From Patescibacteria group bacterium (GTDB lineage Bacteria > Patescibacteriota > Patescibacteriia > UBA2591 > UBA4787): a stretch of DNA of 64,000 nucleotides. The notes under the pieces were generated by a model. The model was not told the origin of the DNA. It saw only the letters and a list, made by a program, of their open reading frames with translations, and ran no database searches. Position numbers and translations under genes: made by a program. This document shows, piece by piece, positions 621 through 18,100 of the stretch (within the stretch, counting starts at the first letter, position 1; every line of letters begins with the position of its first letter). The stretch spans positions 4,944 to 68,943 of the forward strand of contig JAQUSN010000002.1 of NCBI GenBank assembly GCA_028715115.1, given 5' to 3'.

Positions 621-642
621 TCCCCGTAGATATTTGGTATTT

Positions 643-662: not shown

Positions 663-720
663 GGAAATTTGGCTTTCCGACTTAATCTTGTCTGTTCCGC
701 TTCATTTGTATAATTTTTAG

Positions 721-1207
721 AAAATTTTAGAAAATAATTACGCTTTTATTGATGGAGCCAATTTACACATGGGTGTAAAAAGTTTAGGTTGGAAATTAGA
801 CCATAGAAGATTTAGAATCTGGTTAACCGAGAAGTACTCTGTCAGCAAAGCATATATTTTTATCGGCTTGATTCCGAAGAACAAAGATCTTTATACTAAT
901 CTGCAAGAAGCCGGCTTCACTCTAATTTTTAAGGAAGTTGTTTATGATGGTGACGGCAAAGGGCAATTGCGATGCCGATTTGGTCTTAAAGACAACCCAA
1001 GAAGCTTATGAAAATTTATTTGATAAAGCTGCTATTGTTTCCAGCGACGGCGATTACGCTGGGTTAGTAAAATTTCTTCAAGATAAAAATAAATTGGCGA
1101 TAGTTCTTTCGCCAAATTTAGAAAATAAATGTTCGATTTTATTAAAAAGGACAAATGCGCGCATCGCTTATCTTAACGATCAAAAATCAATTTTAGAACT
1201 AAAATGA
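721..1207 (+). pseudogene. NYN/LabA-like (PIN-like RNase) domain gene, disrupted by a +1 frameshift in a GGG run (~961-963) and lacking an ATG start
   Basis: Frame 1 encodes AFIDGANL...LGWKLDHRRF...IFKEVVYDGDGK. The continuation GNCDADLVLK...IVSSDGDYAGLVKFLQDKNKLAIVLSP lies in frame 2 (ORFs 769-1011 and 938-1207). The only in-frame start after the upstream stop is ATT. Confidence 0.6.
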
Positions 1208-1326
1208 AAAAGCCCCCGATGGAGACGAGCTCCATAAGGGTCTTCTTCGTGGTGATAATGCTAGTACAATAGATTAGAGATTAAAGTCAAATTAAAATCT
1301 GTGGATAACCTTTAAAATTATTCAAA

Positions 1327-1662
1327 ATGCTTCAAAATCTACCGATTTTTCAAAAAATTTACGATTTAATCCTTTGGCTGCATCCGGTAATTAATAAATT
1401 TCCCAAGTCGCAGCGCTTTATCTTGGGCCAGCAGACGGAAAATACAGCCTTGGAAATTATCAAAAACGTCATTGCCGCCAACGCCGAAAGAAACAAGACG
1501 GCCTATCTTAAACAAGCCAGTATTGATTTAGATAAATTAAGAATTTTAATTCGTTTAAGTAAGGACTTGAAATTTATCAGTCTCAAACAATATAGCTTGG
1601 CCGCGGAGAAAATTAATGAAGTCGGCAAAATGCTCGGCGGTTGGCTGAAGAGCAGTTGTTAA
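1327..1662 (+). CDS. avd: DGR accessory variability determinant Avd (copy 1; four-helix-bundle family)
   Basis: 111 aa, helical, ending ...EVGKMLGGWLKSS. It is paralogous to the 3129-3482 ORF and lies immediately upstream of TR1. Size and position match the Avd / 23S-rRNA-IVS four-helix-bundle family. Confidence 0.75.
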   Translation: MLQNLPIFQKIYDLILWLHPVINKFPKSQRFILGQQTENTALEIIKNVIAANAERNKTAYLKQASIDLDKLRILIRLSKDLKFISLKQYSLAAEKINEVGKMLGGWLKSSC

Positions 1663-1682
1663 TCAAAGGGGCAAAGTCAAAG

Positions 1683-1805
1683 CGCTCACGTGTTCATTCG
1701 TGGCGGCAACTGGAACAATACGTCCAATGCCGGAGTCTTCAACTTGAACTTGAATTGGAACACGTCGAATTCGAACAACAATGTTGGTTTTCGCTGCGCC
1801 CGGTA
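1683..1805 (+). repeat. DGR template repeat TR1 (adenine-rich on + strand)
   Basis: Asn/AAC-rich pseudo-ORF (NWNNTSNAGVFNLNLNWNTSNSNNNVGFRCAR). It matches VR1 with all differences at TR adenines, and sits 20 nt downstream of avd1. Confidence 0.9.
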
Positions 1806-2055
1806 CTCTTTTTTCTGGCCAGAGCAAAATGTCTATGGACATGAGCCAGCGTCAGAAGACTACGGATTTTGTTCCTCTCCTTAGTAGGTCAAAGCAGTGG
1901 CAGCTAGAGGTTTGACCGAACAGGGAAACCAAAAAGCTCGTACCCTTGAGGAATCAAAGTAGTTTTTTTCGAAATCTTTCCTTAAGGCCAATGGGCTTTG
2001 GCTAAAAATAACAGGACTATTTGTGTTGTCTTGTTGTTTTTAGTCTCCGACCTTT

Positions 2056-3105
2056 TTAATCTTTCAACCACCACCAAAATTGATTTTTGAGATATTGGCC
2101 TAATTTGTAAGTATTAGCATGTGACAATACACCGAGATATGATTGGAGCGATTGTTCGAGCGTCTTCTCGCTAATTATACCATTTTTATATTCTTTAATT
2201 CGGCCCCTTAACTTTCGCATTATTCTTTGTTTCGTTTTAGTTTTGATTAGGCGGTAATAGGGTAGGAGTAGGTGGCCTAGAAAATCAATGCCCTGATCAA
2301 ATTTACGAATGATAATTTTCTTCGGATGAATTTTTAAGAATAATTTTTGCTCTAAAAGTTTTTTCATCGCTTTTAATATTTTTCTTAGATATTTTTTATC
2401 ATTAGCCACGACAATAAAATCATCTGTATAGCGCAAATATTTTTTAATTTGTAATTCATGCTTTACAAATTGGTCAAACTCGTTAAGATAGATATTCGCA
2501 AATAATTGAGAGGTCAAATTACCAATCGGGAGGCCTCTCTTTTTAAATAGATCGGATTGATTAGAGCAAAAACTTTCAATAATTTCCTTAATTAACCACA
2601 TTGCCTTGTCGTCTTTTATCTTTCTGCTGACAATTTCTAATAGAGTATCATGATCCACGCTGGCAAAGAATTTACTGATATCGCATTTGAGGATAAAACA
2701 AGGTTTGGTGTGATTAGCACTAGTAGCTCGTAGAATTTTGGTTAGACAATTCACGGCCTTGTGTGCTCCTTTGTTAATTCGACAAGAGAAAGAATGGCCG
2801 ATAAAGGTTGGTTCAAAAATTGGATTCAAAACAGTAAAAACCGCATGATGCAGTACGCGGTCACGAACCAAGGCTTTGTGAATGTGCCGTTGTTTGGGAT
2901 CGGTAATAAAGAAAGATGTGTATGGGCCATGCTTGTAAGCATGGTTTTGTAAGTCCCGGTACAATTGGAAAATATTGGGCTCTAAATTAAATTCAAACTT
3001 CAGGATATCTGATTTTTTCTTTTTATCTTGGCGAAATTCGTCCCAAGCTGAAAACAGATTTTCCAAAGAGATGATCTTTTCAAACAGATGGCTATAGATC
3101 TTCAT
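2056..3105 (-). CDS. DGR reverse transcriptase
   Basis: 349 aa RT with the YTDDF (YxDD) catalytic motif and LPIGNLTSQLFANIYLNEFD. The SQ substitution in motif 4 is the DGR-RT hallmark. Flanked by TRs and avd genes. Confidence 0.9.
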   Translation of the reverse strand: MKIYSHLFEKIISLENLFSAWDEFRQDKKKKSDILKFEFNLEPNIFQLYRDLQNHAYKHGPYTSFFITDPKQRHIHKALVRDRVLHHAVFTVLNPIFEPTFIGHSFSCRINKGAHKAVNCLTKILRATSANHTKPCFILKCDISKFFASVDHDTLLEIVSRKIKDDKAMWLIKEIIESFCSNQSDLFKKRGLPIGNLTSQLFANIYLNEFDQFVKHELQIKKYLRYTDDFIVVANDKKYLRKILKAMKKLLEQKLFLKIHPKKIIIRKFDQGIDFLGHLLLPYYRLIKTKTKQRIMRKLRGRIKEYKNGIISEKTLEQSLQSYLGVLSHANTYKLGQYLKNQFWWWLKD

Positions 3106-3128
3106 TTTAATTTTTAATAAATAAAACT

Positions 3129-3482
3129 ATGCCCAACGAATTCGACGTTCCCATCTTAAAAAACATCTATGATCTCTACAAAATATTCTATGGTTTTCGC
3201 CACGGTGTTTCCAAACAGGATCGCTACACTATTTGGCAAAAATCAGAGAACCTGATTTTAGAGATTATTGAAGCCATTCTTTTGGCTAGCCAGCAGAGCA
3301 AGATTAATAAAGTGCCAACCCTTGAGCGAGCTAGCGCTAAACTTAACTTCTTGCGAGTTTTTATACGCTTGATGAAAGAAGTCAAAATCATTGACCAGAA
3401 AAAGTATCTAACCTTGCAAGAAGCTGTTGATGAAATTGGCCGGATGCTTGGTGGTTGGTTAAAATCTAGTAAAGATTTTTAA
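3129..3482 (+). CDS. avd: DGR accessory variability determinant Avd (copy 2)
   Basis: 117 aa paralog of 1327-1662 with the same C-terminal ...EIGRMLGGWLKSS. Its start lies 23 bp from the divergently oriented RT start. Confidence 0.75.
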   Translation: MPNEFDVPILKNIYDLYKIFYGFRHGVSKQDRYTIWQKSENLILEIIEAILLASQQSKINKVPTLERASAKLNFLRVFIRLMKEVKIIDQKKYLTLQEAVDEIGRMLGGWLKSSKDF

Positions 3483-3492
3483 GACTTCAATC

Positions 3493-3517
3493 AAAGGGCC
3501 CCTTATGGGGGCCCTTT
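3493..3517. terminator. Perfect 10-bp GC-rich hairpin between avd2 (+) and TR2 (-); candidate bidirectional terminator / DGR RNA structural element
   Basis: The stem aaagggcccc pairs with ggggcccttt across loop ttatg. A T-rich run follows on the minus strand. Confidence 0.55.
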
Positions 3518-3535
3518 GGCTTAGACAGAGAAATG

Positions 3536-3654
3536 ACTTCCGGGCCGCGGACAGACCGATGTTGTCGTTGCGGTTGTCATCCCAGTTGTTGTTGACGTTG
3601 AGACCATTCGCATCGAAGTTGCCGACGTTGACGCGGTTACCGTCCGAAGTGAGA
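3536..3654 (-). repeat. DGR template repeat TR2 (adenine-rich on - strand)
   Basis: The plus strand is T-rich (ttgttgttgacgttg...), so the minus strand encodes an Asn-rich stretch (GNRVNVGNFDANGLNVNNNWDDNRNDNIGLSAARK). It matches VR2 and VR3 with differences only at plus-strand T, i.e. minus-strand A. Confidence 0.85.
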
Positions 3655-3985
3655 AAACTGTCTGTTTTCATCCAAATCTTCAGAAGTTGAGGTTTGCCGT
3701 TCCGTTAAGAATCTATATCCTCTTCTTCTTGTTTACCCTGAGTCGTGGGAAGGGTAGTTTATTCGAGAGTACTCCGATTAAATCAGAGATCTCCACTAAA
3801 AACAGACAAGAAGTTCTGCCTCCATCTTTTTTCACGCGCTATCGCAATCCGTAGAAAGGCGATACTCTGGTGAAGTCTCCCGCTTCCGCCGAAGCTTCGA
3901 CAGGTAGGCAAAAGAAGAGACGTTCGGCGAGGTTAAACCTTGATCTAGCCTTCATTAGCCGAACATTATTATAATATATCAATTT

Positions 3986-4046
3986 TAACAAAAAAGAAAG
4001 AGCCTCCACACAGAGCTACCGGTTGTGGTAGATGTAACGGAGGCTC
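3986..4046 (-). terminator. Rho-independent terminator / conserved 3' element downstream of target gene 2
   Basis: gagcctcc...ggaggctc forms an 8-bp outer stem enclosing an inner hairpin (ctacc ggttgt ggtag). On the minus strand a T-run follows. The block is conserved with 5135-5210. Confidence 0.6.
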
Positions 4047-4085
4047 AAGGATTCAAGAAGTGTCTAGGTCTCGATGACTCAAGAC

Positions 4086-4913
4086 TCAGAACTTCCGGGC
4101 CGCGGACAGACCGATGTGGTCGTAGCGGTAGCCATCCCAGTCGTCGACGACGAGACCATTCGCATCGAAGTAGCCGACGTAGACGCGGTAACCGCCCGAA
4201 GTGAGATCGGAGCAGCGGCCATATCTGGTCGGATTGACGTACTGACCGCTCTTCTTGAAGTACAGCATGGCCTTGGTAACTTCGGTCACAGCCGGCGGTA
4301 CCTCATAGTTGGTCGGCAGCATACTCTGTTGGTCAGCGAAGGTCTTGTCTTCGGAATTCGGTACGATCTCGAGGGGCATCAGCCGCCAACGCAACTTGCC
4401 GGTCGTTCTGACGGCGAAACGCTGGTTGCTGTACCAGGCCTCGGAACTGTACTTGTAGAACCTGGGTTGGCCCGGGGCCGGCTGCAACTGCTGCCACTTC
4501 ATGATGGTCAGCGGAGTGCCGTTGATCCGATCGAGCTCGAGGAAGGCGATGTGCGTTTCGCGAATCGTCTTGCCGGGCACGAAGGGGCACGGGCTGTTGA
4601 GCACTGTCTCGTTCCAGGGGAATCGGGCAATCTCTCGGAGCTGCTTCTTGGTGAAGCGTGCTCCGTAAAGCGCGGCCCAATCGTCAGGACCGAAGAAGCG
4701 TTCGTTACCCATCAGCTCACGGACGAGTTCCAGCGAGATCGGACTCTCGACTTCGCCGCTCAGGAAAGCTTCCGCCACCTTGCGGGCATAGTCAGGGTCG
4801 GTTCGCACACGATCCCAGTGGACCTTCGTCACTCCTCGATCTTGGAGTGCCTTGAGGGTCGATCCGATTTCTCCGAACTCCAGAGTCCAGAGACCATTTT
4901 GGTTTGTACCCAT
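4086..4913 (-). CDS. DGR target protein 2 (C-terminal CLec-like VR2); paralog of target 3
   Basis: 275 aa with C-terminus ...YRVYVGYFDANGLVVDDWDGYRYDHIGLSAARKF. The last ~116 nt match TR2 with A-site substitutions. GC-rich gene (~60%). Confidence 0.8.
   Translation of the reverse strand: MGTNQNGLWTLEFGEIGSTLKALQDRGVTKVHWDRVRTDPDYARKVAEAFLSGEVESPISLELVRELMGNERFFGPDDWAALYGARFTKKQLREIARFPWNETVLNSPCPFVPGKTIRETHIAFLELDRINGTPLTIMKWQQLQPAPGQPRFYKYSSEAWYSNQRFAVRTTGKLRWRLMPLEIVPNSEDKTFADQQSMLPTNYEVPPAVTEVTKAMLYFKKSGQYVNPTRYGRCSDLTSGGYRVYVGYFDANGLVVDDWDGYRYDHIGLSAARKF
4091..4206 (-). repeat. DGR variable repeat VR2 (cognate of TR2; one 3-nt deletion relative to TR2)
   Basis: The 3' end (acttccgggccgcggacagaccgatg) is identical to TR2. 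Internal differences are T to C/A/G on the plus strand. One CAA triplet of the TR CAA-repeat is missing. Confidence 0.85.
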
Positions 4914-5134
4914 GGTACTTACCTCCTGTTGTGTTTGTATTCTCTTTGTCCTTTAGAGACTTTAGAGAATTTGACCTAGGCCGTAGGTCGCGGTCTCATC
5001 TTGGAATAAGACGAGCGTTTTAAAAATCAATTATCTTGATGCCCAAAACGCTCGTCTTATTGTCATCCCCTTACTTATTCTGATTATATTTTATCACATT
5101 TTTCCAAAAAAGTCAAGTTCTAGCTTGATCTTTA

Positions 5135-5197
5135 AGATTAAAAGAAAAGAGCCCTCACCACATGACCCGCCAAGTTTGGCGGATGTAGCGAAGGCTC
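5135..5197 (-). terminator. Rho-independent terminator / conserved 3' element downstream of target gene 3
   Basis: gagccctc...gaaggctc forms the outer stem (7 of 8 bp) with an inner hairpin (ccgcc aagttt ggcgg), followed by a T-run on the minus strand. It shares the motif GATGTARCGRAGGCTCAAGGAWTCAA with 4031-4060. Confidence 0.55.
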
Positions 5198-5228
5198 AAG
5201 GAATCAAAAGGCTCGAGTGTTCGAGGTT

Positions 5229-5993
5229 TTAAGCTTCGAACTTCTGGGCCGCGGACAGACCGATGCCGTCGTCGCGGTAGTCATCCCAGTCGTCGCTGAC
5301 GAGGAGACCATCCGCACCGAAGTAGCCGACGTAGACGCGGTTACCGTCCGAAGCGAGATCACTGCAACGAACGTAGACGCTTTCGAACAAGCGCTTGCCG
5401 GTGGCCAGGAAGTACAGCACCATGGTGTAGATCACCGTCTGAGCGGTGGGTGTGTATTCGTTCTCGGCCAGCAGCGCCTGCTGCTCGGAGTAGGTCTTGC
5501 CGATGGAGTTGTCCACCGGTGTCTTCCGAATCAGTTCCCAGCCGACTTTGCCGGGTTGCGAAGCGAACTTCTGGTTGTTGTACCAGTCCTGACCATAGAA
5601 GACTTTGCCCTTGCCGGCAACCAGGCGACGGATCTCGATGATCGAGGTGCCGAGGTTGGCTACCAGCAGGTGGGTGTTCTTGCAGGCTTCGAGTTCACCC
5701 TCGGTGAACGGCACTTCGGCCAGGGCCTTGATGATTTCGGGGCTCGGAGTGAGTCCGAGATGCTTGGCCGCCTCTTCGATGCCGAGCATGTTCGTGCCCA
5801 TGATGGCACGGGCACGTTCCTGCGATGTCGTCGGCGTAAAGCCGCCGGCGGTTGCGAATGTGGCCAGGCGATCGACGAAGGCGGGGTCGGCGTTGATTCG
5901 ATTGACGATCTGATCGGCGTTGTCTCCGAAAGCAACCCGGAGACGCTGTTCCGCGGCATTGAGATCGCCGGCGGGGACTTGTGTCCATTTCAT
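5229..5993 (-). CDS. DGR target protein 3 (C-terminal CLec-like VR3); paralog of target 2
   Basis: 254 aa ending ...GNRVYVGYFGADGLLVSDDWDDYRDDGIGLSAAQKFEA. The last ~119 nt match TR2 with A-site substitutions. GC-rich. Confidence 0.8.
   Translation of the reverse strand: MKWTQVPAGDLNAAEQRLRVAFGDNADQIVNRINADPAFVDRLATFATAGGFTPTTSQERARAIMGTNMLGIEEAAKHLGLTPSPEIIKALAEVPFTEGELEACKNTHLLVANLGTSIIEIRRLVAGKGKVFYGQDWYNNQKFASQPGKVGWELIRKTPVDNSIGKTYSEQQALLAENEYTPTAQTVIYTMVLYFLATGKRLFESVYVRCSDLASDGNRVYVGYFGADGLLVSDDWDDYRDDGIGLSAAQKFEA
5240..5358 (-). repeat. DGR variable repeat VR3 (cognate of TR2)
   Basis: Same length as TR2 (119 nt). Differences sit at plus-strand T positions (ttg to ccg/tcg/ctg/agg etc.), plus a single C/T difference near the 3' (IMH-like) end. 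Confidence 0.85.
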
Positions 5994-6087
5994 GGCAGAC
6001 TCCTTTCTCTGTTGACCCTTTGAGATTATTGCTGGGCGACTAGATGAGGATTTTGGGCTTACGATCCCTGTTTACGACCTGTCTCGG

Positions 6088-6150
6088 GAATGAGGCAAGT
6101 TATCTAAAGACCATTGTTTAATGATTTCCAGATAACTTGTCTCATTTTTT
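6088..6150. repeat. Palindromic repeat copy C of the AAATGAGACA(C)...TGTCTCATTT family
   Basis: gAATGAGgCAAGTTATC - 26 nt - GATAACTTGTCTCATTTT is an inverted repeat of 17 bp with 2 mismatches. Related elements occur at 14807-14858 and 56692-56826. Confidence 0.5.
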
Positions 6151-6283
6151 CTCTTGAATTCCTAATATATTTTGAGTTGTAAAGAACCTCCTTTGATTCT
6201 TATGCATATATTATAGCACAAAATAGGAAAAAGTCAAGAGCAAATTTTTGGCTTAAAATAAGTAGGGTTTGATGATTTTACGG

Positions 6284-7618
6284 TTATTTATTCTCTTCCA
6301 TTACGGTAATCTTTTTATCTTTGTATTTTAATTTGCTTTTTAGATTAGCCAGTAGCTCCCGTTTGTCTGAGATACCGCCTTCTTTTAAGAGATACTTAGC
6401 ATATTCGCGGATATTAACTTCACTTTCTTCAACCAAGGTTGGCGCGGTTTTGGTATTGCTGTCAACGATTTTTCTTAATTTATTAAATCTTTTAATTTCA
6501 TCTTGGAGCTTAACTCTTATCCCCAGTTCATTGATACTTACAATATCTATAATCTTAAACAATTCGTCAATTAATTCCTCTTCCCTAATATATTTATTTT
6601 TACAGTTTCTATCTTTGGCCCTTGAGCAGCCGTAATAAATATAATGAGCCGAGCTGCCATCTTTGAGGGTTTTCCATTTTTCTTCAGCCGATATTCCTGA
6701 CCCGCAATAGCCGCAAGTGAATAGTTTAGTGAAGGCGAACTCCTTGTTTTCTCGGACGATCTGATCTCTTTTTAATTGTGCTTTGGCCTTTTCAAATAAT
6801 TCCTGAGTGATAATTGGCTGATGTTTGCCGGTATACCAGTTGCCGCTGCCTCGGGGATGTTCAAAAGCTCCATAATAGAACGAATTGTCTAGAATGCGAT
6901 AAATCCCGCTTAGGGTTAGCGGCTTATTGCCTCGAGTATAGAAGTTCAGCTCGAATCTTAGCCAGTTGTACAGCTTAATGCCGGAACAATATTCGTAAGC
7001 AACCTTTTCGAACATTTTTTTAATTATTGGAGCCCTAGCCGGATCAACGACGATCTGGCATTTTTTATCCATCAATTTTTGGTTTAGATATCCAAGGGGA
7101 GCTAGTCCGGGCCATAAGCCCATTTCTACCCTAGTGCGCAATCCTCGTTTAACGTTAATACTGCGATTATCATTTTCCAGTTTAGCTTGCGAACCCAATA
7201 TCATTAACAGAAATTTCTCGTTAGGGTTATTGGTAAATTTTTGGCCAAACGTACGAATCTCTATTAAAAGCTTGGCATCCATTAAATCAACTATTTTACC
7301 CAGATCGCCGGCATTTCTTGAAATTCTATCTGGCGCCCAAGTCAAAATAGCGTTATATTTTCCCTGTTTGATTTCTTCGATAATCTCATTGAAGATCGGC
7401 CTCTGTCCTGCTTCTTTGGCTGAATGCGACTCACGCTTCACGGCCGTGACCTCCAAGTTTTCCTTTTCGGCCAATTGAAACATTTCTTTAATCTGGCTAT
7501 CAATCGACAGTACCTGTCTTTCTTCACTTTCAGTGCTTTTTCTAGCATAAAGGCAATATTTAGCCTTAATTACTTGATTAAGTCCTTGATTTTTTGCTAA
7601 GGTTTTTGTTTGTTCCAT
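6284..7618 (-). CDS. Large serine recombinase (resolvase/invertase N-domain + recombinase domain + zinc ribbon)
   Basis: The N-terminus YCLYARKSTESEERQVLSIDSQ carries the catalytic Ser context. A recombinase domain follows, with a Cys cluster CGYCGSG...YYGCS. It is ~60% identical to 48535-49896. Confidence 0.85.
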   Translation of the reverse strand: MEQTKTLAKNQGLNQVIKAKYCLYARKSTESEERQVLSIDSQIKEMFQLAEKENLEVTAVKRESHSAKEAGQRPIFNEIIEEIKQGKYNAILTWAPDRISRNAGDLGKIVDLMDAKLLIEIRTFGQKFTNNPNEKFLLMILGSQAKLENDNRSINVKRGLRTRVEMGLWPGLAPLGYLNQKLMDKKCQIVVDPARAPIIKKMFEKVAYEYCSGIKLYNWLRFELNFYTRGNKPLTLSGIYRILDNSFYYGAFEHPRGSGNWYTGKHQPIITQELFEKAKAQLKRDQIVRENKEFAFTKLFTCGYCGSGISAEEKWKTLKDGSSAHYIYYGCSRAKDRNCKNKYIREEELIDELFKIIDIVSINELGIRVKLQDEIKRFNKLRKIVDSNTKTAPTLVEESEVNIREYAKYLLKEGGISDKRELLANLKSKLKYKDKKITVMEENK

Positions 7619-7923
7619 AGGTTTTTGTCTTATTGGTTACTATGGAAAGGAATGACAAAACTGCTCAAAGAGTCCAGAGCAGAGGAGTAGACAACCTGTC
7701 GGTAACTAAGCTTCACTTTTTACTTTGTTATGTTAAGATATAAGCACAATTAATTTGCCTAAACCCATGGATTTCTGTGGGCATGGCAATAAAAACCGGT
7801 AAAGGATATTAAGCTCGTCGTCAGAGCTCCTTTACCGGTCATATCCTCGAAAGGGGGTATGGGTAGCGCAAGCTATCGCTGGCGGCGAGCTTTGTGTTTT
7901 CCGCCAAATAGTAATTTTATTTT

Positions 7924-8778
7924 ATGAAAAACAAGGTTATTAATTGGCTATTTATTCTCTGTCTTTTTCTAGTTTCTTTATCTTTGACTGGCTGTTCAAG
8001 CCAGACCACTAATTTAATAAACCAGCCAACAAACAATGTTGTTAATCAAACTAATAGTCCGACAGAAGCAGCAAACGAGGTGGTGCAAAACCTTCAAAAC
8101 AATGTTGTCATTAACAATAAAGATAATAGTGTGGTGGATAATAATCAAATCCCCGACTATTATTCTGTCACTAAGGTGGTTGACGGCGATACTTTTAAGG
8201 TCTCAATCAATGGCTCAGAAAAAAGCATTCGTTTGATCGGCCTTGATACGCCAGAAACTGTTGACCCAAGAAAGCCAGTTCAATGTTTTGGAGTTGCGGC
8301 ATCAAATAAGGCCAAAGAGTTATTGTCTAGCAAAAAAGTAAAACTCGAAGCCGATTCATCTCAAGGCGATCTTGATAAATATGGCCGCTTGCTTCGTTAT
8401 GCTTTTTTGGAAGACGGTACCTTCTTTAACAAGTGGATGATCGCTAACGGTTATGGTCATGAATATACGTACAATTTGCCGTATAAATACCAAACAGAGT
8501 TTAAAGAGGCCGAGAGATCAGCCCAAACCAATAAATTGGGCTTATGGGCCGACGGCGCCTGTGATAGTCAAGCCAATACACAATCCCCAGTTCCGGCCAC
8601 ACCAGCAGCTACGGGGCATGTTTTTTACACCTCATCTTACTACACCTCTAAAACCTATTATTGTGATACAGATTTGGCATGGAAAAATCTTAGCCCAAAA
8701 TACCTGAAACAGTTTTCAAGCGAAGTAGAGCTATCAAAGGTTTATCCTACCAAGACTCTTCACGAACCATGCAAATAG
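7924..8778 (+). CDS. Thermonuclease (staphylococcal nuclease-like, SNase) lipoprotein
   Basis: Lipoprotein signal ...LSLTGCSS. SNase motifs DGDTFKV...IRLIGLDTPE...YGRLLRY. Confidence 0.8.
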   Translation: MKNKVINWLFILCLFLVSLSLTGCSSQTTNLINQPTNNVVNQTNSPTEAANEVVQNLQNNVVINNKDNSVVDNNQIPDYYSVTKVVDGDTFKVSINGSEKSIRLIGLDTPETVDPRKPVQCFGVAASNKAKELLSSKKVKLEADSSQGDLDKYGRLLRYAFLEDGTFFNKWMIANGYGHEYTYNLPYKYQTEFKEAERSAQTNKLGLWADGACDSQANTQSPVPATPAATGHVFYTSSYYTSKTYYCDTDLAWKNLSPKYLKQFSSEVELSKVYPTKTLHEPCK

Positions 8779-9984
8779 TTATCCGTTTGTTGAGCTATTA
8801 TTTTTAGGTGGTGGCCATGGCTTACTAATCATGCCTCCCTCCTTATTATAATCTATAAGATATTCTCGTGTTTTCTCCTTGCTCTCCATGAGCTCAAGGA
8901 AATGGTTCCAGTCTTCTACCGTTACCACCTCTCCATTTGGACCGACGCTTTTTGAGCTATAGGGAGCACTGATGCAAAAATCAGGATGAATATTTCTCTT
9001 TTCTCTCTCTTCAGGACTTAAATATTGACCGAAATATTTTTCATAAAGCGCTGGTGGATAAAATTCGCGAGTTCGAGGGCCGGTTACTAGTAAATATTCC
9101 TGTAGCCAAATTAATTCATCCGAGCAACTGCTTTTTATTCTTTCAATATCTTCGGGTTTGAATTTCTCCGGCCAAAGGTTTCGATCATTATCATCCAAGA
9201 GGGGATAAATGCAGCAGGCAGCATTGGCAATCCGATTCTGAACAATTTCCCTATAAAGCTTCATAATCAATGATGAATTGTCTAATAGATTGCCCAATAC
9301 GACAATGTTGGTTGATTTATCGCCGGCCGGCATAATCTCATTTTTAAACCATTCGCACATCCTTTTGCCTTCTTTGTAATTTTTCGCGGATTGCCTGTCT
9401 TCCAAATCGTCACAAATAATCAGGTCGGGTCGATGCTGTCCGAATTTTATTCCCCTGATATTTTGCCGTAATCCGGCAGCCATAATCATGGCTCCGTATT
9501 TTTTTAGCAAAATATGGTTTGGCCCCCAATCTTCATGATCTTGACGGAAGCCGCCGAAGTCATTATTTAATAGTTCATTGCTTTCCAGTTCGTATTTTAT
9601 ATTTTCCAGATGAAGCTTGGCTTGTTTTTTGTGCTGACTTAGAATCAGCACAAACTTTTTTTGCGGTTTGCCGATGATTGACCAAATAATGTTCGAAAGA
9701 TTCATGATGGTGCTTTTGCCTGAACCGCGAAAAGCGATTATGTTAACCAATCGATATGAGGGATCTTCTGTGATAGTCAGCATCTGTTTGTGGAAAATAG
9801 CCAAAGGATAGCTTAAATGATCAGCCAAGTAAATTTTTGAAAACCAATAGTGACTTTGCTTGGCAAGTTCTTGTCGGAATCGGCGGCTTGTTTTTATCTG
9901 TTCAAAAATGGTCCCAATCGGCTGGGTCTCGTTCCTTCTTGGCACCAGCTCCGTCTGTTTTTGGCGGGATTCCTGATTTGTCAT
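8779..9984 (-). CDS. Phage terminase large subunit (TerL)-like ATPase/nuclease
   Basis: Walker A AFRGSGKST and Walker B LIICDDLED, with C-terminal acidic nuclease-like motifs. It is overlapped upstream by a TerS-like ORF. Confidence 0.75.
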   Translation of the reverse strand: MTNQESRQKQTELVPRRNETQPIGTIFEQIKTSRRFRQELAKQSHYWFSKIYLADHLSYPLAIFHKQMLTITEDPSYRLVNIIAFRGSGKSTIMNLSNIIWSIIGKPQKKFVLILSQHKKQAKLHLENIKYELESNELLNNDFGGFRQDHEDWGPNHILLKKYGAMIMAAGLRQNIRGIKFGQHRPDLIICDDLEDRQSAKNYKEGKRMCEWFKNEIMPAGDKSTNIVVLGNLLDNSSLIMKLYREIVQNRIANAACCIYPLLDDNDRNLWPEKFKPEDIERIKSSCSDELIWLQEYLLVTGPRTREFYPPALYEKYFGQYLSPEEREKRNIHPDFCISAPYSSKSVGPNGEVVTVEDWNHFLELMESKEKTREYLIDYNKEGGMISKPWPPPKNNSSTNG

Positions 9985-10354
9985 ATTCCTCTTTTGCCAC
10001 TTCCGTGGCTATTTTTAACAATTTAATTTGCTCCGGCTTTAATTCTTCATAATACGCTTCTTTTACTGTGTGCAGTTTCTCGGCATATTGCGAATGGTGA
10101 TTCTTAAGCCAATAAATAATGGCCGTGATATTTCCTTTTTTTATCAAGCTGAGCAACTGACTTTCAGCCATATCGTTGATTAGTGACGATCCATCAGAAA
10201 TGGCATCATCGGCTAATCGGGCAAAGGCTTTATCTTCCTTGCGCCAACGATAATAGCTGCTTCTGTTGAGCCCGACCTTTTCACAGGCAAACTGAACTAT
10301 GGGGACCCTCTTTAGTTGCTCAAGCAGATTTCTTTTTATTTCTTTGGTCTTCAT
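9902..10354 (-). CDS. Phage terminase small subunit-like / HTH DNA-binding protein
   Basis: 150 aa with an N-terminal HTH-like segment (FACEKVGLNRSSYYRWRKED). Position immediately upstream of and overlapping TerL. Confidence 0.45.
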   Translation of the reverse strand: MKTKEIKRNLLEQLKRVPIVQFACEKVGLNRSSYYRWRKEDKAFARLADDAISDGSSLINDMAESQLLSLIKKGNITAIIYWLKNHHSQYAEKLHTVKEAYYEELKPEQIKLLKIATEVAKEEYDKSGIPPKTDGAGAKKERDPADWDHF

Positions 10355-11751
10355 AAAACCTTGTGCGCTTTAACTCCGGTTAGCTTTTCCCATCGGTTCC
10401 GAATAACCTCTGCATAGACGGGCGACTTCTCCATTAGATAGCAGCGACGTTTCATCTTCTCGGCAGCGATCAGTGTTGATCCGCTGCCGCCAAACGGCTC
10501 AATAATTAAGTCATTTCTCTTGGTTAAAACCTTGAGATAGGGGATAAGAACTTCAAGCGGTTTGGTTCCGAAGATAATCCCTTGGCCTGAGCTTTTCTCG
10601 TCGGCGGCCGTATATTCGATATAATCGGTGGGGCAATATTTCTTGCCGGCTTCGTAGCTTTCCCAATGCGGTTTGCCGGAAGTGGCGTAAAGAGCGTTTT
10701 CATATTCCTCTTGCAGTAATCCTTCTTCGGGCCCCAAATTCAAATCAACTTTCCCCTGGGTTCCCACGGCGGCAATATCTGTCTTATTGAAGAATTTATA
10801 TTTAGCTGCAAAGCCCTGGCATCTGTTTGGCACATGCCAAGTAATCGTATTTCTGTATTTCCAGTGTTTCTCTAATTCCAACCAAATAGTTTTAAGATTC
10901 TTGGGATTTTCAAAGACAATAATTGAAAAGTCGGACTTTTGAATCTTGGCAACATTAGCCATCCATTTTTCGGTAAAGTCCGGCGGCAATTCATCTGTTT
11001 CCAGATATTTGCGATCTCGCTTTAAACCAAATCCCTCGATTGCTTCGCCGTGCTTCTTTTTGCCTTTTAAATAATCTAAGAGGTAAGGTGGGTCAGTGAA
11101 ACACATATCTGCACTTTCATTGCCCATTAGCCTCAAGACGTCATTTTCAATAGTTGAATCGCCGCACATTAAGCGGTGATTACCTAATTGCCAAACGTCG
11201 CCCCTTTGAATCTCAATTTGAGAAATGTTTAATTTATCCAATTCTTTCTTTAGATCAAATATTTCTGGGCTTTCGTCAATGCCAAAGATGTTATCCATCT
11301 CTTCCGAAGAGAATCCAACGTCGCCCAGCATCTTTTCGCCAAAATCAGCCAAAATGTTCCAATCAAACTCACCGGTGTTTTTATTGAGGCGAAGATTGAT
11401 TTCTTTCTCAAGCTCTAGGCCTGGGATATCAACCCAAACAATGGGCACGGTGGTAAAGCCCAATTCTTTGACAATCTTTAACCGAAAATTCCCGCCTAAC
11501 ACCACCCCTTTGCGGTTTAACGCTGAATTAACAATTAAAGGATCAATTAGTCCGAATTTAGCAATTGATTCTTTTAGATTTTTGCTTGTTTCATCTGACC
11601 AGACTCGTGGATTATATTCACACGGTTTTAGTTGATCAATTGAAACGTACTCGACCTTTAGAATTGACTTCGCGACAGAAGTTTCCATAGGTATTAAATT
11701 AATGATTAATAAATTAAATAAACAAAAGCGACCCAAAAAAGAATTCATCAA
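10351..11751 (-). CDS. ParB-like nuclease domain fused to DNA methyltransferase (N6-adenine/N4-cytosine, beta class)
   Basis: N-terminal ParB-N-like region, a DPPY motif (MCFTDPPYLLDY) and a C-terminal SAM motif I (IIEPFGGSGST). This is the typical phage ParB-MTase architecture. Confidence 0.8.
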   Translation of the reverse strand: MMNSFLGRFCLFNLLIINLIPMETSVAKSILKVEYVSIDQLKPCEYNPRVWSDETSKNLKESIAKFGLIDPLIVNSALNRKGVVLGGNFRLKIVKELGFTTVPIVWVDIPGLELEKEINLRLNKNTGEFDWNILADFGEKMLGDVGFSSEEMDNIFGIDESPEIFDLKKELDKLNISQIEIQRGDVWQLGNHRLMCGDSTIENDVLRLMGNESADMCFTDPPYLLDYLKGKKKHGEAIEGFGLKRDRKYLETDELPPDFTEKWMANVAKIQKSDFSIIVFENPKNLKTIWLELEKHWKYRNTITWHVPNRCQGFAAKYKFFNKTDIAAVGTQGKVDLNLGPEEGLLQEEYENALYATSGKPHWESYEAGKKYCPTDYIEYTAADEKSSGQGIIFGTKPLEVLIPYLKVLTKRNDLIIEPFGGSGSTLIAAEKMKRRCYLMEKSPVYAEVIRNRWEKLTGVKAHKVL

Positions 11752-11961
11752 AAATTGATGTAACCCTTTTTTGGGCCGCGTTGTACATGTTGGAGATCAA
11801 CCTAGGTTGGTGATTATCTTGATTCGATGGCTAATGTTATCGTAGCCTATCGGCGGAATTACGCGGTCTGTATTAAATTGTTATTTATAGTATAAAACAA
11901 GAATATATTTTGGCAAGAAAAGTTATCCACATATCGTGAACCCTGTGAACATAGTATACAC

Positions 11962-11989
11962 TTGACAGTTTTTAAAATGATGTTATGAT
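11962..11989 (+). promoter_or_regulatory. Sigma70-like promoter (TTGACA - 16 nt - TATGAT) for the repressor gene
   Basis: ttgaca at 11962-11967 and tatgat at 11984-11989, directly upstream of the ATG at 11992. It lies in the divergent region between ParB-MTase and the repressor. Confidence 0.4.
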
Positions 11990-11991
11990 AA

Positions 11992-12645
11992 TTGCATATG
12001 ACTATTCATAAAACACAACTTAAATTATTAGAATTAATGAAAACACACAATCTGAATGGCCTGTCTTTGCGTGATATTGGTGAGTTAATTGGGATAAAGG
12101 ATAAACCCCATATAATTAGGCATCATCTTTTACAATTGAAGAAACGAGGACTCATCTATTGGGATCAATCAAAAAAAGAGATTAGAAAAATATCAAAGGG
12201 AATAGAGAGCGATAGCGGTTTAGTTCCCATTCCCATTCTTGGCGCGGCTAATTGTGGCCCGGCCACTCTTTTGGCTGAACAAAATATTCAAGGATATCTT
12301 AGGATATCAAAAAGATTTTTGCCTCGAGTTACAAAAAATATCTTTGCCATTAGAGCCGTTGGTTCATCTTTGAATAGGGCCGATGTTGATCACAAAGGAA
12401 TGCATATTGATGATGGCGATTATGTTTTGATCGATAGTAGTTATCGAAACCCACAAAACAAAGATTATGTTTTATCTGTTATTGATGATGTTGCCAATAT
12501 TAAGAAGTTTATCAGAGAGAAAAATAAAATAACTTTATTATCTGAATCAACAGAAAATATTCCACCCATCTATATACACCGTGATGATAATTATATGATT
12601 AACGGTAAGGTAATCCAAGTAATTAAGAAACCTAAAATAGATTAA
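11992..12645 (+). CDS. LexA/CI-like repressor (N-terminal winged HTH + S24 peptidase domain)
   Basis: An HTH-like N-terminus (LSLRDIGELIGIKDKPHIIRHHLLQLKKRGLI), then an S24-like AIRAVGSSLNRA (Ser) and a later Lys. The divergent orientation from the phage genes is typical of a CI repressor. Confidence 0.65.
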   Translation: MHMTIHKTQLKLLELMKTHNLNGLSLRDIGELIGIKDKPHIIRHHLLQLKKRGLIYWDQSKKEIRKISKGIESDSGLVPIPILGAANCGPATLLAEQNIQGYLRISKRFLPRVTKNIFAIRAVGSSLNRADVDHKGMHIDDGDYVLIDSSYRNPQNKDYVLSVIDDVANIKKFIREKNKITLLSESTENIPPIYIHRDDNYMINGKVIQVIKKPKID

Positions 12646-12806
12646 TAGTATTTATAGTTCTTTAAAAGCTGGCGAGGAAAAACGGCGCCCGATTTATGTT
12701 TCTTTTATCTCAGACTAATCACCTTTACCCCCTCCAAGAGTTATTTTACGATGATTCTTGGAGGGCTGGTTTAAAGGTTGAACAGTCCGAGTTTAATTAA
12801 CAATAA

Positions 12807-12998
12807 TTGACGTACTGTTTTATGAATGAACGAATTTCGGTTAAGACAGGACAGATAGCGCCAATCTCTGGTCAATATAGGCCGGTCGGCACTACTTTTG
12901 AGATCACCCTTTCTAAGGGCGATCGCGTCCCGCCTTATCAAGGCAGAGCCTGGACATTTGTTTTGGTTGATAAAACCAAACATATGATTAGGTACTAA
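12807..12998 (+). CDS. Small hypothetical protein (YjzC-like?)
   Basis: 63 aa. KTGQIAPISGQYRPVGTTFEITLSKGDRVPPYQG resembles the small YjzC family. The ORF overlaps an antisense ORF, so the call is weak. Confidence 0.3.
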   Translation: MTYCFMNERISVKTGQIAPISGQYRPVGTTFEITLSKGDRVPPYQGRAWTFVLVDKTKHMIRY

Positions 12999-13050
12999 TC
13001 TTGCTTTAAGCCTCGTCAGCTTTTAGAGAACTATACGATGTTATAATTTT

Positions 13051-13644
13051 ATGCTGTCTAAGAAATCTATCGAGGAATATAAAAGGATATACAAAGAACA
13101 TTATGGTCAAGAAATATCAGACCAAGAAGCTCTCGAACAGGGGACCAATCTGCTTAATTTTTATAAGATTCTTTATGAGTGCGAACTGAAGGAATTTCGA
13201 TGGAAAGAGAAATTAAAAGACAGCCCCAAGGGGGTTCACATAGATGCTGGGGAATATACTTGTTGTGTGTGCAAAAATCATGTTGATGGTACAGTTTGTT
13301 GGTATGATCAAAATGGTATTAAATGCCCTCTATGCCAGAAAGCTGTTGAGAATAATATCATTCCAGTAGAAGTTTGTAAGGATCGTGATAGTTGGTATGC
13401 TGTTTGGGAATTTGATCATTATTTTAAGATGAAAGCAGCTACCGTTCGTAAGTTCATTCGCAATGGTAAACTTAAAGCAAGAATTATAACAGATGAAAAC
13501 GGGCATACACATTGCGAGGTTTTAATGATTAAAGAAAATTCAGAAGTTTTACCATCCAAGCCAAAGAGTCATATGGTGCAAAATAAAGATGGGTCGTTCC
13601 ACGTAGAGTATGAAGAAGTTAATTTAGATAAGTTATTAAAATAA
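13051..13644 (+). CDS. Hypothetical Cys-rich protein (possible zinc-binding)
   Basis: 197 aa with CCVCKNH...CWYDQNGIKCPLCQK. No family was recognised. Confidence 0.5.
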   Translation: MLSKKSIEEYKRIYKEHYGQEISDQEALEQGTNLLNFYKILYECELKEFRWKEKLKDSPKGVHIDAGEYTCCVCKNHVDGTVCWYDQNGIKCPLCQKAVENNIIPVEVCKDRDSWYAVWEFDHYFKMKAATVRKFIRNGKLKARIITDENGHTHCEVLMIKENSEVLPSKPKSHMVQNKDGSFHVEYEEVNLDKLLK

Positions 13645-13653
13645 AAATATTTT

Positions 13654-14433
13654 ATGGATAATGATGGAATAAATTTAGATTTATGGAATAAATTAAGTGC
13701 TGTTCAAAAGAAGACTCGAATAGAGTTCGCGCTAAAAATTATTATTAATGTTGCGCAGATTCAAAAACAATCACTAAAAAATATTAAAAAATTTGGTAAT
13801 CCAGACGCAGAAAGGTTTCTCTATTTTGAGAAAACATTAGATGATATATGGGAAAACATAAAATTTGCTATTTCATTGGGAAAGGGGAAAAACAGAAAGT
13901 TTGCCTTTTATCCCGCTAGAAGTGTTTTAGAAAATTTTTTTAGATTAGATTATTTTACCCAGCAAAATCCGCAAGAACAAAAAAATATTGCCATGATGGA
14001 GGCTCTTAAAGTTTGTAAGATAATGTATGATCAAGAAAAAACAAACAATCATACAGAGGGGATGAAATCTTTTAATAATCACTATCAGAAAGTAAGCGAT
14101 GGTACCTACCAAGATATTGATAGTATAAATTTAAGTAGTCTTGATGCGTTTCCGTCAATGAAAGAAATGATGAAGCGTTCAAATCTTCTAGATGGGAATG
14201 AATGGTATTTTATATATCGGAGCTTGTCAGAGTCTGCTCATGGAAAATTTATGGCTAGACTGATTAGAGAACTTGATGATAGGGCAGAGTATATTAGATC
14301 ATTAATGTGTTTAAATCGTATAGCAATTGAAACAATTAAAATTACTGATTTCCATTTAAGATTTAAAACTAAAGATGACGTAAAAAGGGTTATTATACAG
14401 GCTAAGTCAATCATTGAGAGACAACAATCATGA
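13654..14433 (+). CDS. Hypothetical protein
   Basis: 259 aa ORF with coding-like composition. No motif was recognised. Confidence 0.5.
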   Translation: MDNDGINLDLWNKLSAVQKKTRIEFALKIIINVAQIQKQSLKNIKKFGNPDAERFLYFEKTLDDIWENIKFAISLGKGKNRKFAFYPARSVLENFFRLDYFTQQNPQEQKNIAMMEALKVCKIMYDQEKTNNHTEGMKSFNNHYQKVSDGTYQDIDSINLSSLDAFPSMKEMMKRSNLLDGNEWYFIYRSLSESAHGKFMARLIRELDDRAEYIRSLMCLNRIAIETIKITDFHLRFKTKDDVKRVIIQAKSIIERQQS

Positions 14434-14768
14434 TTCAATTTATTACACCAAAATTATTTCAGAGCATTGTTGATCAGGGTTATGATATGGCGGCTTTATG
14501 GATGAACGAAGTGGTCAAAATGATTTTAAAATTATATTGGCCATATATTTTAGCTTTTTTGTTTTTCGCTGCATTGGTCAAAATTTGCCAATGGAGAATT
14601 GGCAGTTTAATTTATCATATAATTGCCGGCACCTTTTTAATGGTCCTATTTATAATTGGTGGGGGATTTAAAATATTTTTTAATCCCTTCTTTGATTTAA
14701 TCTGTTTTTTCATATATAAACTTTCATTCTATTTAACGGGCCAAACTTGGCACAGTAGATTAAGGTAG
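14430..14768 (+). CDS. Small membrane protein (3 predicted TM segments)
   Basis: 112 aa with hydrophobic stretches. Overlaps the preceding gene by 4 nt. Confidence 0.5.
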   Translation: MIQFITPKLFQSIVDQGYDMAALWMNEVVKMILKLYWPYILAFLFFAALVKICQWRIGSLIYHIIAGTFLMVLFIIGGGFKIFFNPFFDLICFFIYKLSFYLTGQTWHSRLR

Positions 14769-14806
14769 TTAATGTTCTTCTGGATAGAGAAGAAGGGTAT
14801 CTTAGC

Positions 14807-14858
14807 AAAAAGAGACACAAAGCACTCCTTTTTATAGTGTCTCATTTGTCGCATTTTG
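14807..14858. repeat. Palindromic repeat copy A (AAAAGAGACAC - 18 nt - GTGTCTCATTTGTCGCATTTTG)
   Basis: The right arm is near-identical to 56734-56755 (GTGTCTCATTTGTCTCATTTTG). It lies just after the last gene of island 1. Confidence 0.5.
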
Positions 14859-15084
14859 GGCTGCATAAGGTCGGCCTAGCAACCCACGTGCTTCAAAATT
14901 AGCACTAGACAAGTCGCCAAATAAGCTTTATAATTTCTATATATACGGGGTACTTAACCAGAGTGTCCCGCCAGCAAAAATATTTATTACATAATCAAAA
15001 AGCTCCGCAAGTGGGGCTTTTTGGTTAGTTCAACATGTCCTTGACGTACGCCCCAGCATATTATATTATTTAAATAGTTGGATA

Positions 15085-17770: not shown

Positions 17771-17908
17771 ATCTGGACTTTTCGTTTATTTTTGCTCTAG
17801 ATATCTCGGTTTTCAGTGTGGTGGGGTGGCAGAGTGCCTGCCTGTCCTGACTGCCGTCAGGTAGGCGGTAGGCAGGGACTATTACACTGGCTTGTCCCGC
17901 AATAGAGC

Positions 17909-17993
17909 GGAAGGGTGGCAGAGTGGACTATTGCACCGGTCTTGAAAACCGGAGTACCGCAAGGTACCGCGAGTTCGAATCTCGCCCCTTCCG
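17909..17993 (+). tRNA. tRNA-Ser (anticodon TGA), long variable arm
   Basis: Acceptor ggaaggg/cccttcc, anticodon loop cTTGAaa, variable hairpin agtaccgcaaggtac, T-arm gcgag-TTCGAAT-ctcgc, discriminator G, no encoded CCA. Confidence 0.75.
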
Positions 17994-18100
17994 CTCTGAT
18001 GCGGGGTCTTGAAAACCATCCGCTTACTGGCGGAAATCCCTGCCTGCCGGTAGGCAGGTCGCCCCCACCGCCAAGATATTTTTCGGTATTTAGATTTATT

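Follow-up and report, generated by a model that had tools for sequence, protein, structure and literature searches.

Here, we find that the segment at 6.1–15.0 kb (~8.9 kb) of a 64,000-nt stretch of DNA from a Patescibacteria group bacterium (GCA_028715115.1, contig JAQUSN010000002.1, positions 4,944 to 68,943; hereafter, the window) is a typical, intact member of a large island family of candidate phyla radiation (CPR) bacteria. The island, termed island 1, couples a large serine recombinase to a phage-like packaging operon and an S24 repressor, and ends in a conserved non-coding module that resembles the 3′ end of a tRNA. We are highly confident of its family membership and architecture. Whether the segment in its entirety is an intact member of a family that is widespread in Patescibacteria is a claim we hold with about even confidence, and a satellite mechanism for it is put forward tentatively. 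The family is apparently undescribed: we found no account of such islands in CPR bacteria in the literature, where paywalled work may exist.

The evidence for the family comes from a scan of one genome per GTDB species (species representatives), in which relatives are encoded in 491 of 600 matched stretches. Eighty-two loci (given here as L numbers) were annotated by open reading frame (ORF) calling and phmmer with clustering of all ORFs; 79 were retained for some counts. The gene order ParB_N-methyltransferase, helix-turn-helix (HTH) small-terminase (TerS)-like protein, large terminase (TerL), usually followed by a large serine recombinase, is seen in ~80 species-representative genomes. TerL is present in all 82 loci, the ParB-methyltransferase in 81 (sometimes accompanied by a second methyltransferase), and the TerS-like gene in 77, and 57 loci have a recombinase no more than 10 kb away. 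The recombinase lies downstream of TerL on the same strand in 46/79 loci, and in 18/79 it starts less than 300 nt from the TerL stop. No conserved portal or capsid protein was found, nor any other protein family in more than 19 of the 82 loci. From distal site to recombinase the elements span 7–17 kb; the packaging operon is sometimes inverted inside this frame, and in many members a divergent LexA/CI-like S24 repressor stands beside it. About 38 IMG/VR contigs share the architecture and are presumably called viral on account of their TerL; no circular or terminal-repeat contigs were seen among them. An initial annotation of the window, made from the sequence alone, had called the block satellite-like. 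That this capsid-less architecture is met again in many CPR genomes, where the cargo varies, the ends are linked to tRNAs and elements form tandem arrays, fits that description.

Gene content and the packaging operon

All the genes named in the initial annotation were recovered by ORF listing and by Pfam and PHROGs searches (Table 1), and its statement that capsid and tail genes are missing also stands. Searches of Pfam and PHROGs link none of the block's proteins to capsid, portal or tail families, and no portal, major capsid, tail or lysis gene lies within 6088–14973.

Table 1. Features of island 1 and examples of the likely attachment site of its recombinase family (window positions, unless a locus is named)
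Feature	Position	Strand	Evidence and remarks
Imperfect palindrome, 58 bp	6089..6146	.	Ends AATGAGGCA...TGTCTCATT, then T-run; 27-nt arms, 81% complementary
Large serine recombinase (integrase)	6284..7618	-	Pfam Resolvase + Recombinase + Zn_ribbon_recom; PHROG 95 integrase 3e-60
LOOT RNA (Rfam RF03000)	7756..7877	+	93.2 bits vs gathering score 46.4; model positions 1-121, full length
SNase-family lipoprotein, predicted secreted, cargo	7924..8778	+	Pfam SNase 6e-22; PADLOC candidate 'SNc+LTD' 3e-48
Large-terminase ATPase without nuclease domain, 401 aa	8779..9984	-	PHROG 38 2e-34; alternative start gives 388 aa
Small HTH TerS-like protein, 150 aa	9902..10354	-	Pfam HTH_Tnp_1_2; PHROGs 309/4044/4102 (TerS) 1e-7 to 5e-4
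ParB_N + N6/N4 DNA methyltransferase (N6_N4_Mtase) fusion	10351..11751	-	PHROG 498 3e-77; gene callers start at 11688
Divergent promoter region	11889..11989	.	TTGCCA-16-TATACT on (-), packaging operon; TTGACA-16-TGnTATGAT on (+), repressor
LexA/CI-like S24 repressor, predicted self-cleaving	11998..12645	+	Pfam Peptidase_S24 (PF00717) 5e-15, 55.8 bits
Hypothetical protein, 58 aa	12822..12998	+	Conserved in close relatives (gene calls in L001, L177); no family match
Zn-ribbon (CxxC...CxxC) + Xis/BldC/MerR-like winged-helix protein, 197 aa	13051..13644	+	Alignment; AlphaFold2 (AF2) pLDDT 91
DUF5677-like protein, cargo, possible defence	13654..14433	+	Pfam DUF5677 3.6e-4, below cutoff
Hypothetical protein, 112 aa	14430..14768	+	Overlaps DUF5677-like gene; no family match (Pfam, PHROGs, PADLOC, NCBIfam)
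Conserved distal-end site	14805..14859	-	Tandem 9-mers AATGCGACA AATGAGACA, loop CTATAAAAAGGAG, inverted 9-mer; model R1 56.7 bits
Distal non-coding module	14889..14973	+	Core AACCCACGTGCTTCAAAA; promoter-like TAGACA-17-TATAAT; 7-bp hairpin + GCCA GGGGTACTTAACCAGAGTGTCCCGCCA
tRNA-Ser + linker-core examples	L217 3419-3560; L192 1158-1270; L187 1179-1310; L058 19950-20080		Diverse CPR genomes

The TerL gene is present as originally called, with one correction: it encodes the ATPase half of a large terminase only. The protein has the N-terminal ASCE (additional strand, conserved glutamate) ATPase of packaging motors, with conserved Walker A and B motifs (AFRGSGKST and PDLIICDDLE in the alignment), and in Foldseek searches its AF2 model (pLDDT 86.5) best matches T4 gp17, followed by the ATPase domains of T7, HK97 and P74-26 (E 1e-8 to 1e-5). 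The RNase-H-like nuclease (PF17289, Terminase_6C) gives no Pfam match, and its columns are absent from the alignment. Comparison with phages, which the initial annotation had proposed, yields only distant relatives: the nearest annotated TerLs belong to Mu-like transposable phages (FP_Mushu and transposable phages of Pseudomonas and Ralstonia), with 24–30% identity over the ATPase domain.

The lengths of TerL homologues are bimodal, ~480–510 aa with PF17289 versus ~335–405 aa without. Both classes are collinear and highly conserved through Walker A/B to a REYLL motif, after which the short forms have no nuclease columns and have only a small ISAP motif in common; the 100-aa tail of the island 1 TerL is otherwise unrelated. 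When the ATPase domains of the query and of 120 listed homologues are placed in a neighbour-joining tree, forms below 430 aa make up one diversified clade, bar two exceptions nested among the long forms. Because the short TerLs cluster in this way, loss of the nuclease is old and inherited, not a local truncation. At the other extreme, several loci (L033, L039, L050, L084, L104, L116, L117, L124, L126) carry two full-length TerL paralogues in tandem (~510–560 aa each).

The genes of the block are intact and, on the substitution patterns available, under purifying selection. Against a 75%-identical orthologue in L007, dN/dS of TerL is 0.11, and values of 0.09–0.17 were obtained for TerS, the S24 repressor, the 197-aa protein and SNase, all of them rough, with dS near saturation. 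These observations bear on the proposal, also made in the initial annotation, that the block is a decaying prophage remnant without present function. Such a remnant would account for the missing virion genes, for a TerL without its nuclease domain and for the lack of a clean border on the recombinase side. It is nonetheless already contradicted by the data, and we consider it very improbable: every ORF is intact with dN/dS ~0.1, the nuclease-less TerL represents an old clade with a conserved tail, the same module boundaries, including the TerL-recombinase junction, recur in distant and deeply diverged lineages, and the cis-acting module is conserved as well.

Among assemblies of the same species, gene callers alternate between the 401-aa and 388-aa TerL starts, and four assemblies (L003, L004, L093, L095) break inside or beside TerL/SNase, at contig ends. 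The breaks and alternating starts hint that the island varies among strains or is difficult to assemble.

The TerS-like protein is a small HTH protein of DNA-binding type encoded immediately upstream of TerL, whose start its gene overlaps, and is on these grounds a putative small terminase; its match to PF13022 (29.8 bits) slightly exceeds the cutoff of 27.9. The recombinase contains the three domains of large serine recombinases, each above its Pfam cutoff: the resolvase catalytic domain (PF00239, 7.8e-20), the recombinase domain (PF07508, 2.8e-11) and the zinc beta-ribbon (PF13408, 2.8e-9). Its nearest NCBIfam family is CcrB, far under cutoff (122 bits vs 900).

The repressor is transcribed away from the packaging operon. 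It has a DNA-binding N-terminus, GSS...K motifs (Ser/Lys dyad) and a Cys-Gly site, seen by eye, and aligns with lexA (NCBIfam TIGR00498, 9e-22, below cutoff) over its full length (residues 6–211); self-cleavage is predicted from these features. The consensus promoter assigned to it in the initial annotation is confirmed at 11962–11989, with 11/12 matches. Since the -10 box ends 8 nt before the ATG at 11998, the repressor mRNA may well be leaderless, like that of lambda cI when transcribed from PRM.

The distal end and its link to tRNA genes

A 9-mer, AATGAGACA/TGTCTCATT, occurs 8 times in the window where 0.9 occurrences are expected, and is clustered in many related loci too. Close to the right end of the island it forms a composite site, of consensus AAAATGAGACA-AATGAGACA-C-TATAAAAAGG...-TGTCTCATTTT, that is, two tandem copies and one inverted copy. 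A covariance model built from 25 such sites (R1) matches 30 further genome loci at E<1e-3, typically with one full-length site per element, and more among IMG/VR loci. The site lies at the element end distal to the recombinase, in fixed orientation relative to it, also in those elements whose packaging operon is inverted. In the window, R1 matches at 14805–14859 (56.7 bits), 56690–56756 (49 bits) and 56790–56826 (27 bits, hairpin only).

Between inverted and direct copy, 5/9 pairs change on both sides, which 0/500 shuffles reach; the R1 alignment was picked for an exact inverted 6-mer (the six inner pairs), which leaves the three outer pairs as the only covariation evidence free of bias. In variant sites, all three copies of the 9-mer change together (GAGACA to GTGACA, GTCCCA or GCGACA), which points to a protein-binding site rather than an RNA hairpin only. 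A sigma-70 promoter was also considered for this site and is ruled out by its wrong spacing to TATAAA.

What protein might bind there? One candidate, either as binder of the 9-mer site or as directionality factor, is the 197-aa protein. The initial annotation had listed it with the hypotheticals, of which the block has three to four, and it can now be recast as a Zn-ribbon plus Xis/BldC/MerR-like DNA-binding protein. Its best Foldseek matches are BldC, a phage P2 DNA-binding protein (4lhf) and the Xis of mycobacteriophage Pukovnik, all of them weak (E 0.15–1.5, TM ~0.6 over ~52 aa). BldC/Xis-type proteins bind direct repeats. The gene often adjoins the distal site in relatives. With a homologue recognisable in only 17/82 loci, the recombinase is an alternative candidate for binding the site.

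Beyond the 9-mer site lies the distal module. It comprises a core (consensus (G/A)ACCC(A/G)nnTGCCTCAAA), a promoter-like element with 11/12 matches, and a 7–8 bp hairpin followed by (G)CCA, here GGGGTACTTAACCAGAGTGTCCCGCCA at 14947–14973, which resembles a tRNA acceptor minihelix. Rfam gives chance-level matches only for this region. In a three-way alignment of the window with L177 and L007, homology is kept through the hairpin and lost immediately beyond it. The three elements sit at different loci, and the differing flanks past the hairpin set the distal border at ~14973. Of the limits first drawn for the block (6088–14858), the right one therefore moves outwards by ~115 nt.

The module is not peculiar to the block. 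A metagenome scan with the hairpin as query mostly recovered true copies of the entire module, with the island genes always on the site side and often with a tRNA-Ser 0.5–12 kb away, in the same orientation, with variable content between. As an observation in its own right, an ~85-nt module (core GACCCnnnTGCCTCAAA, -35/-10, hairpin + CCA; loci L183–L259) is very common in CPR metagenome contigs, sometimes with 2–3 copies per contig. The module could be expressed as a tRNA-acceptor minihelix, could mimic an attachment site, or could do both.

Downstream of the real tRNA-Ser genes on these contigs there is a conserved linker-core sequence, CCGCCA-AGACAAnTTTTTATCGGnnnGACCCGAGTG, and the same linker and core also follow the minihelix in many contigs. 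We regard this tRNA-Ser 3′ linker-core sequence as the likely attB of the recombinase family. The L024 element is flanked on either side by a direct repeat of 36 nt that consists of the tRNA-Ser 3′ end, the linker and the core. In ~17 loci, a tRNA-Ser or tRNA-Gln gene, its 3′ end towards the recombinase, is found 0.1–5 kb beyond it. More generally, the recombinase-side end in relatives abuts a tRNA gene (Ser, Gln, Lys), and the distal module repeats the 3′ end of the tRNA, its downstream linker and the core. From this arrangement we infer that attB would consist of tRNA 3′ end, linker and core, and that the distal module would be the element's own copy, serving as a new attB after integration. 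Such a fresh attB would explain the tandem elements (L113/L127, L120, L257, L305) and short remnants. Elsewhere in the window, a sequence resembling the 5′ part of tRNA-Ser (17826–17870, GGTGGGGTGGCAGAGTG...) stands just upstream of the real tRNA-Ser(tga) at 17909–17994; it may be a pseudo-tRNA or a recombination scar.

Left flank, cargo and a second island

The opposite end of island 1 is less distinct. The block had originally been delimited by two members of one palindromic repeat family. The shared 9-mer is real and the right-hand palindrome belongs to the conserved site family; the left-hand one, 138 nt past the recombinase stop, was rejected as a bona fide member, with only its terminal 9-mers shared and no R1 match. 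It may be a protein-binding site or a terminator at the recombinase-side end. Searches for a second copy of the distal tRNA-like end of island 1, for a linker-core motif on its left side and for a conserved motif after the recombinase stop in relatives found none, and no left border could be defined from the border searches made. Flanking att repeats, seen for L024 and for island 2 (below), were not seen for island 1. No block-free genome was found for the comparison that had been suggested; the right border comes from related elements at other loci.

To the left of the recombinase is a diversity-generating retroelement (DGR), within 1–6023, with two Avd genes (1327–1662, 3129–3482) around one reverse transcriptase (RT; 2056–3105, -). 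Its GC-rich target ORFs are open on both strands (4074–4979 + / 4086–4913 -; 5217–6023 + / 5229–5993 -), and gene callers disagree between strains on the strand. DGRs whose RT is ~52% identical to that of the window occur inside L119, L122 and L108 (TerL-recombinase interval) and in L027 (just inside the distal site); others lie between recombinase and tRNA in L087 and past the recombinase in L106. These positions indicate that DGRs are recurrent cargo and that cargo may sit beyond the recombinase, as the window DGR does. It is thus plausibly cargo of island 1; it may also be part of a separate element on the left. The link can be called no more than plausible because the recombinase-side border is not located and the lysis-like cassette to the left is another candidate owner.

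That cassette, 6–10 kb left of the block, belongs to a flank outside the window, left of its position 1 (L300 1–8006), that encodes a coiled-coil protein of 344+ aa, a 1062-aa protein, an XhlA-like 71-aa protein, an Amidase_2 endolysin (PHROG lysis, 9e-36) and bPH_2. It also includes a second DGR, in which the RT is split and the 488-aa target has an N-terminal methylation motif of type IV pilins, after which the 298-kb contig ends. The flank may be another mobile element or the end of a prophage. If the latter, the block might be the integrase, lysogeny and packaging end of a larger prophage that runs left through the two DGRs and the XhlA-like/amidase lysis cassette to structural genes past the contig end. 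In its favour are the genes of this flank, among them the lysis-like genes, bPH_2 and the second DGR before the contig end; DGRs are often phage-borne, and relatives may carry cargo between recombinase and attachment site. We nevertheless think this improbable. The 344-aa, 1062-aa, XhlA-like and amidase proteins recur in 0/126 related loci, and relatives with both ends visible are only 7–17 kb long and have no virion genes. Moreover, phages have portal and head genes directly after TerL; here, the recombinase follows TerL, and the left-hand genes converge on the recombinase instead of being placed after TerL.

Within the island, the gap between recombinase and SNase is filled by a LOOT RNA, overlooked in the initial annotation. 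It lies 5′ of the SNase gene, and in three relatives LOOT is likewise found directly 5′ of an SNase-family gene or operon (L007, 6052–6173; L071, 8910–9034; L128, 6663–6784); two loci whose SNase proteins are larger have no LOOT. Its position directly 5′ of these genes suggests that LOOT is a cis-acting leader of the SNase cargo gene rather than a free small RNA (sRNA). The accessible portion of the LOOT discovery paper contains no description of the motif. SNase itself has an N-terminal lipobox (LSLTGC), on the basis of which it is classed as a lipoprotein, and its PADLOC match ('SNc+LTD') is to a model of candidate defence genes.

Cargo elsewhere in the family was read from representative proteins of the next commonest families and from precomputed Pfam annotation of the locus gene tables. 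It includes restriction-modification (RM) and defence genes (type I RM with AbiV and an OLD-like ATPase; Vsr with Dcm; ResIII with a methyltransferase; DUF5677 with HEPN_AbiU2, a pair present in L009; cyclic-oligonucleotide-based anti-phage signalling systems, CBASS), copper and other metal resistance (CsoR, DUF305, P-type ATPase, DsbD-HMA), and also DUF4352 with HTH, DsbA, an ABC transporter and DGRs. A close relative with a short TerL (L304 59–4305) has a CBASS operon (SMODS, SAVED, E2-like, trypsin-like protease) beside its S24 repressor.

A second island, at 48386–57042, has the same recombinase/site frame as island 1 and no terminase. Its recombinase (48535–49896, -) is a paralogue of that of island 1 (phmmer E 9e-162) and lies 128 nt from a tRNA-Lys. 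Direct repeats of the 22-nt tRNA-Lys 3′ end bound the island at 48386–48407 and 57021–57042, with GACCGTGAGGGGTC and GACCGAGAGGGGTC located inward of them. About 7 kb right of the recombinase are two 9-mer sites (56690–56826), a core-like motif and the copy of the tRNA-Lys 3′ end. The cargo is related to metals and iron: two Nitro_FeMo-Co proteins, a MinD-like Fe-S ATPase, a glutaredoxin-DsbD, a CDF transporter and FeoB. Both the terminase and a homologue of the 197-aa protein are absent from island 2, which we speculate depends on island 1 in trans.

Mechanism, rival readings and known systems

How might island 1 move? In the sequence of events that we favour, DNA damage would induce self-cleavage of the S24 repressor and so derepress the packaging operon and the recombinase, as in an SOS-type response. 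The recombinase would then excise the island, possibly aided by the Zn-ribbon/Xis-like protein on the 9-mer site, and the island's own TerS and TerL would load island DNA into the capsids of a helper phage, making it a phage satellite. The cargo carried in this case would be the SNase lipoprotein with its LOOT leader, the DUF5677-like pair and possibly the adjacent DGR. Unproven as it is, 'satellite-like' is the best reading of the block. A bolder version would make the family a new class of satellite specific to CPR/Patescibacteria, with its own complete terminase (or an ATPase-only TerL in one old clade) and no capsid. Here the serine recombinase would act beside tRNA genes, and each copy would bring a promoter-driven tRNA-acceptor minihelix as a new attachment site, thereby building arrays of defence, metal-resistance and DGR cargo, and islands that have no terminase, island 2 among them, would be mobilised in trans by way of the 9-mer site they share. 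We see this version as possible, if doubtful.

Several observations weigh against the satellite mechanism. No helper phage was identified, and no excised circle, empty site or virion-derived copy of the block was found. Look-ups with the exact recombinase, TerL and right-flank kinase proteins gave only contigs with the island in the same place, with no empty site or island-free strain among them. None of the block's 10 proteins has a primase or helicase domain of a replication module (with its ori) in Pfam, PHROGs or NCBIfam, and the GC content of the block (37.5%) equals the window background. Direct repeats between the ends of island 1 do not rise above chance, and no tRNA was found on its recombinase side, including 3.7 kb beyond the window covered by L001–L003. 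A nuclease-less TerL would be unable to cut concatemers, so that packaging would depend on a different nuclease, for which the ParB_N domain is a candidate in this clade, or on a substrate of unit length. Lastly, the selection behind the R1 alignment counts here too, most family sequences come from metagenome-assembled genomes (MAGs), and ~50/79 retained loci are titled Patescibacteria/CPR, the others (about a third) being MAGs titled as non-CPR taxa.

The main rival to a satellite is an integrative island for defence and other cargo, whose terminase module no longer packages its own DNA. The role of that module might then be to obstruct invading phages at the packaging step, where it would serve as a decoy or compete for portals or pac sites, while the island itself would spread by natural transformation or generalised transduction, like staphylococcal cassette chromosome (SCC) elements, which have Ccr only. 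The dominance of defence systems among the cargo fits such an island, as do the strong conservation of a TerL clade that lacks the nuclease, the occurrence of terminase-free islands in the same recombinase/site frame (island 2, L187) and the fact that CcrB is the nearest named recombinase family. It accounts less readily for TerS, TerL and ParB-methyltransferase remaining together, overlapping and in phage order, in ~80 lineages, or for the full-length TerL, nuclease included, that most lineages possess, as for real packaging; PADLOC models, too, match neither TerL nor TerS. On balance, we judge this explanation rather unlikely.

The islands matter in several respects. Much of bacterial diversity belongs to the CPR, whose phages and routes of gene transfer are barely known. 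A conserved and readily recognised family of islands that carry RM, CBASS, DGR and metal-resistance genes would be a major route of horizontal transfer for genomes of such small size, and would account for many of the 'prophage' calls made in CPR MAGs and IMG/VR on the strength of TerL only. Studies of DNA packaging and of serine integrases gain two oddities that can be tested, the nuclease-less TerL clade and the tRNA-minihelix attachment module, and the predicted attB/attP pairs could be a source of new serine integrases whose sites are defined. The orphan LOOT RNA, a full-length match to RF03000 that Rfam types as an sRNA, gains a genomic context in its position 5′ of an SNase-family gene.

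Among known systems, the islands are best compared with satellites of the phage-inducible chromosomal island (PICI) type and with SCC cassettes, although they match neither in full. Like PICIs, including those of Staphylococcus aureus (SaPIs) and capsid-forming PICIs (cfPICIs), they are elements of ~10–15 kb with site-specific integration, a divergent repressor, a small terminase subunit of their own that would redirect packaging, accessory or defence cargo and no complete virion. The block likewise combines an integrase, here of the serine type, with a repressor and divergent operons at about this size, without a full virion set. Classical PICIs have tyrosine integrases, a primase/rep-ori module and only TerS, to which cfPICIs add capsid and portal genes. 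The islands, by contrast, have a large serine recombinase, both a TerS-like protein and TerL, no capsid, no recognisable replication module and a ParB_N-methyltransferase core. Their hosts are CPR bacteria. SCC/Ccr elements are also serine-recombinase cassettes at the 3′ end of a conserved gene, with a distal site repeat that allows tandem accretion; unlike the islands, they have no terminase genes and no S24 switch, and their target is rlmH instead of a tRNA.

Two further comparisons concern the recombinase and the terminase. The PICI-like elements (PLEs) of Vibrio cholerae, ~18 kb in length, use the packaging machinery of their helper rather than a TerL of their own. They are satellites that, like the islands, integrate by a large serine recombinase (PMC6002521), and they both restrict and exploit a phage. 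As for the terminase, those of Mu-like phages (Terminase_6N/6C) are closest to the ATPase domain of the island TerL, with the difference that TerL is followed by portal and head genes in the phages and by the recombinase in the islands. The phi29 protein gp16 offers a precedent for a packaging ATPase without a nuclease, as in the TerL clade described here. The DNA packaged by phi29 is protein-capped and of unit length, of which the islands show no sign.

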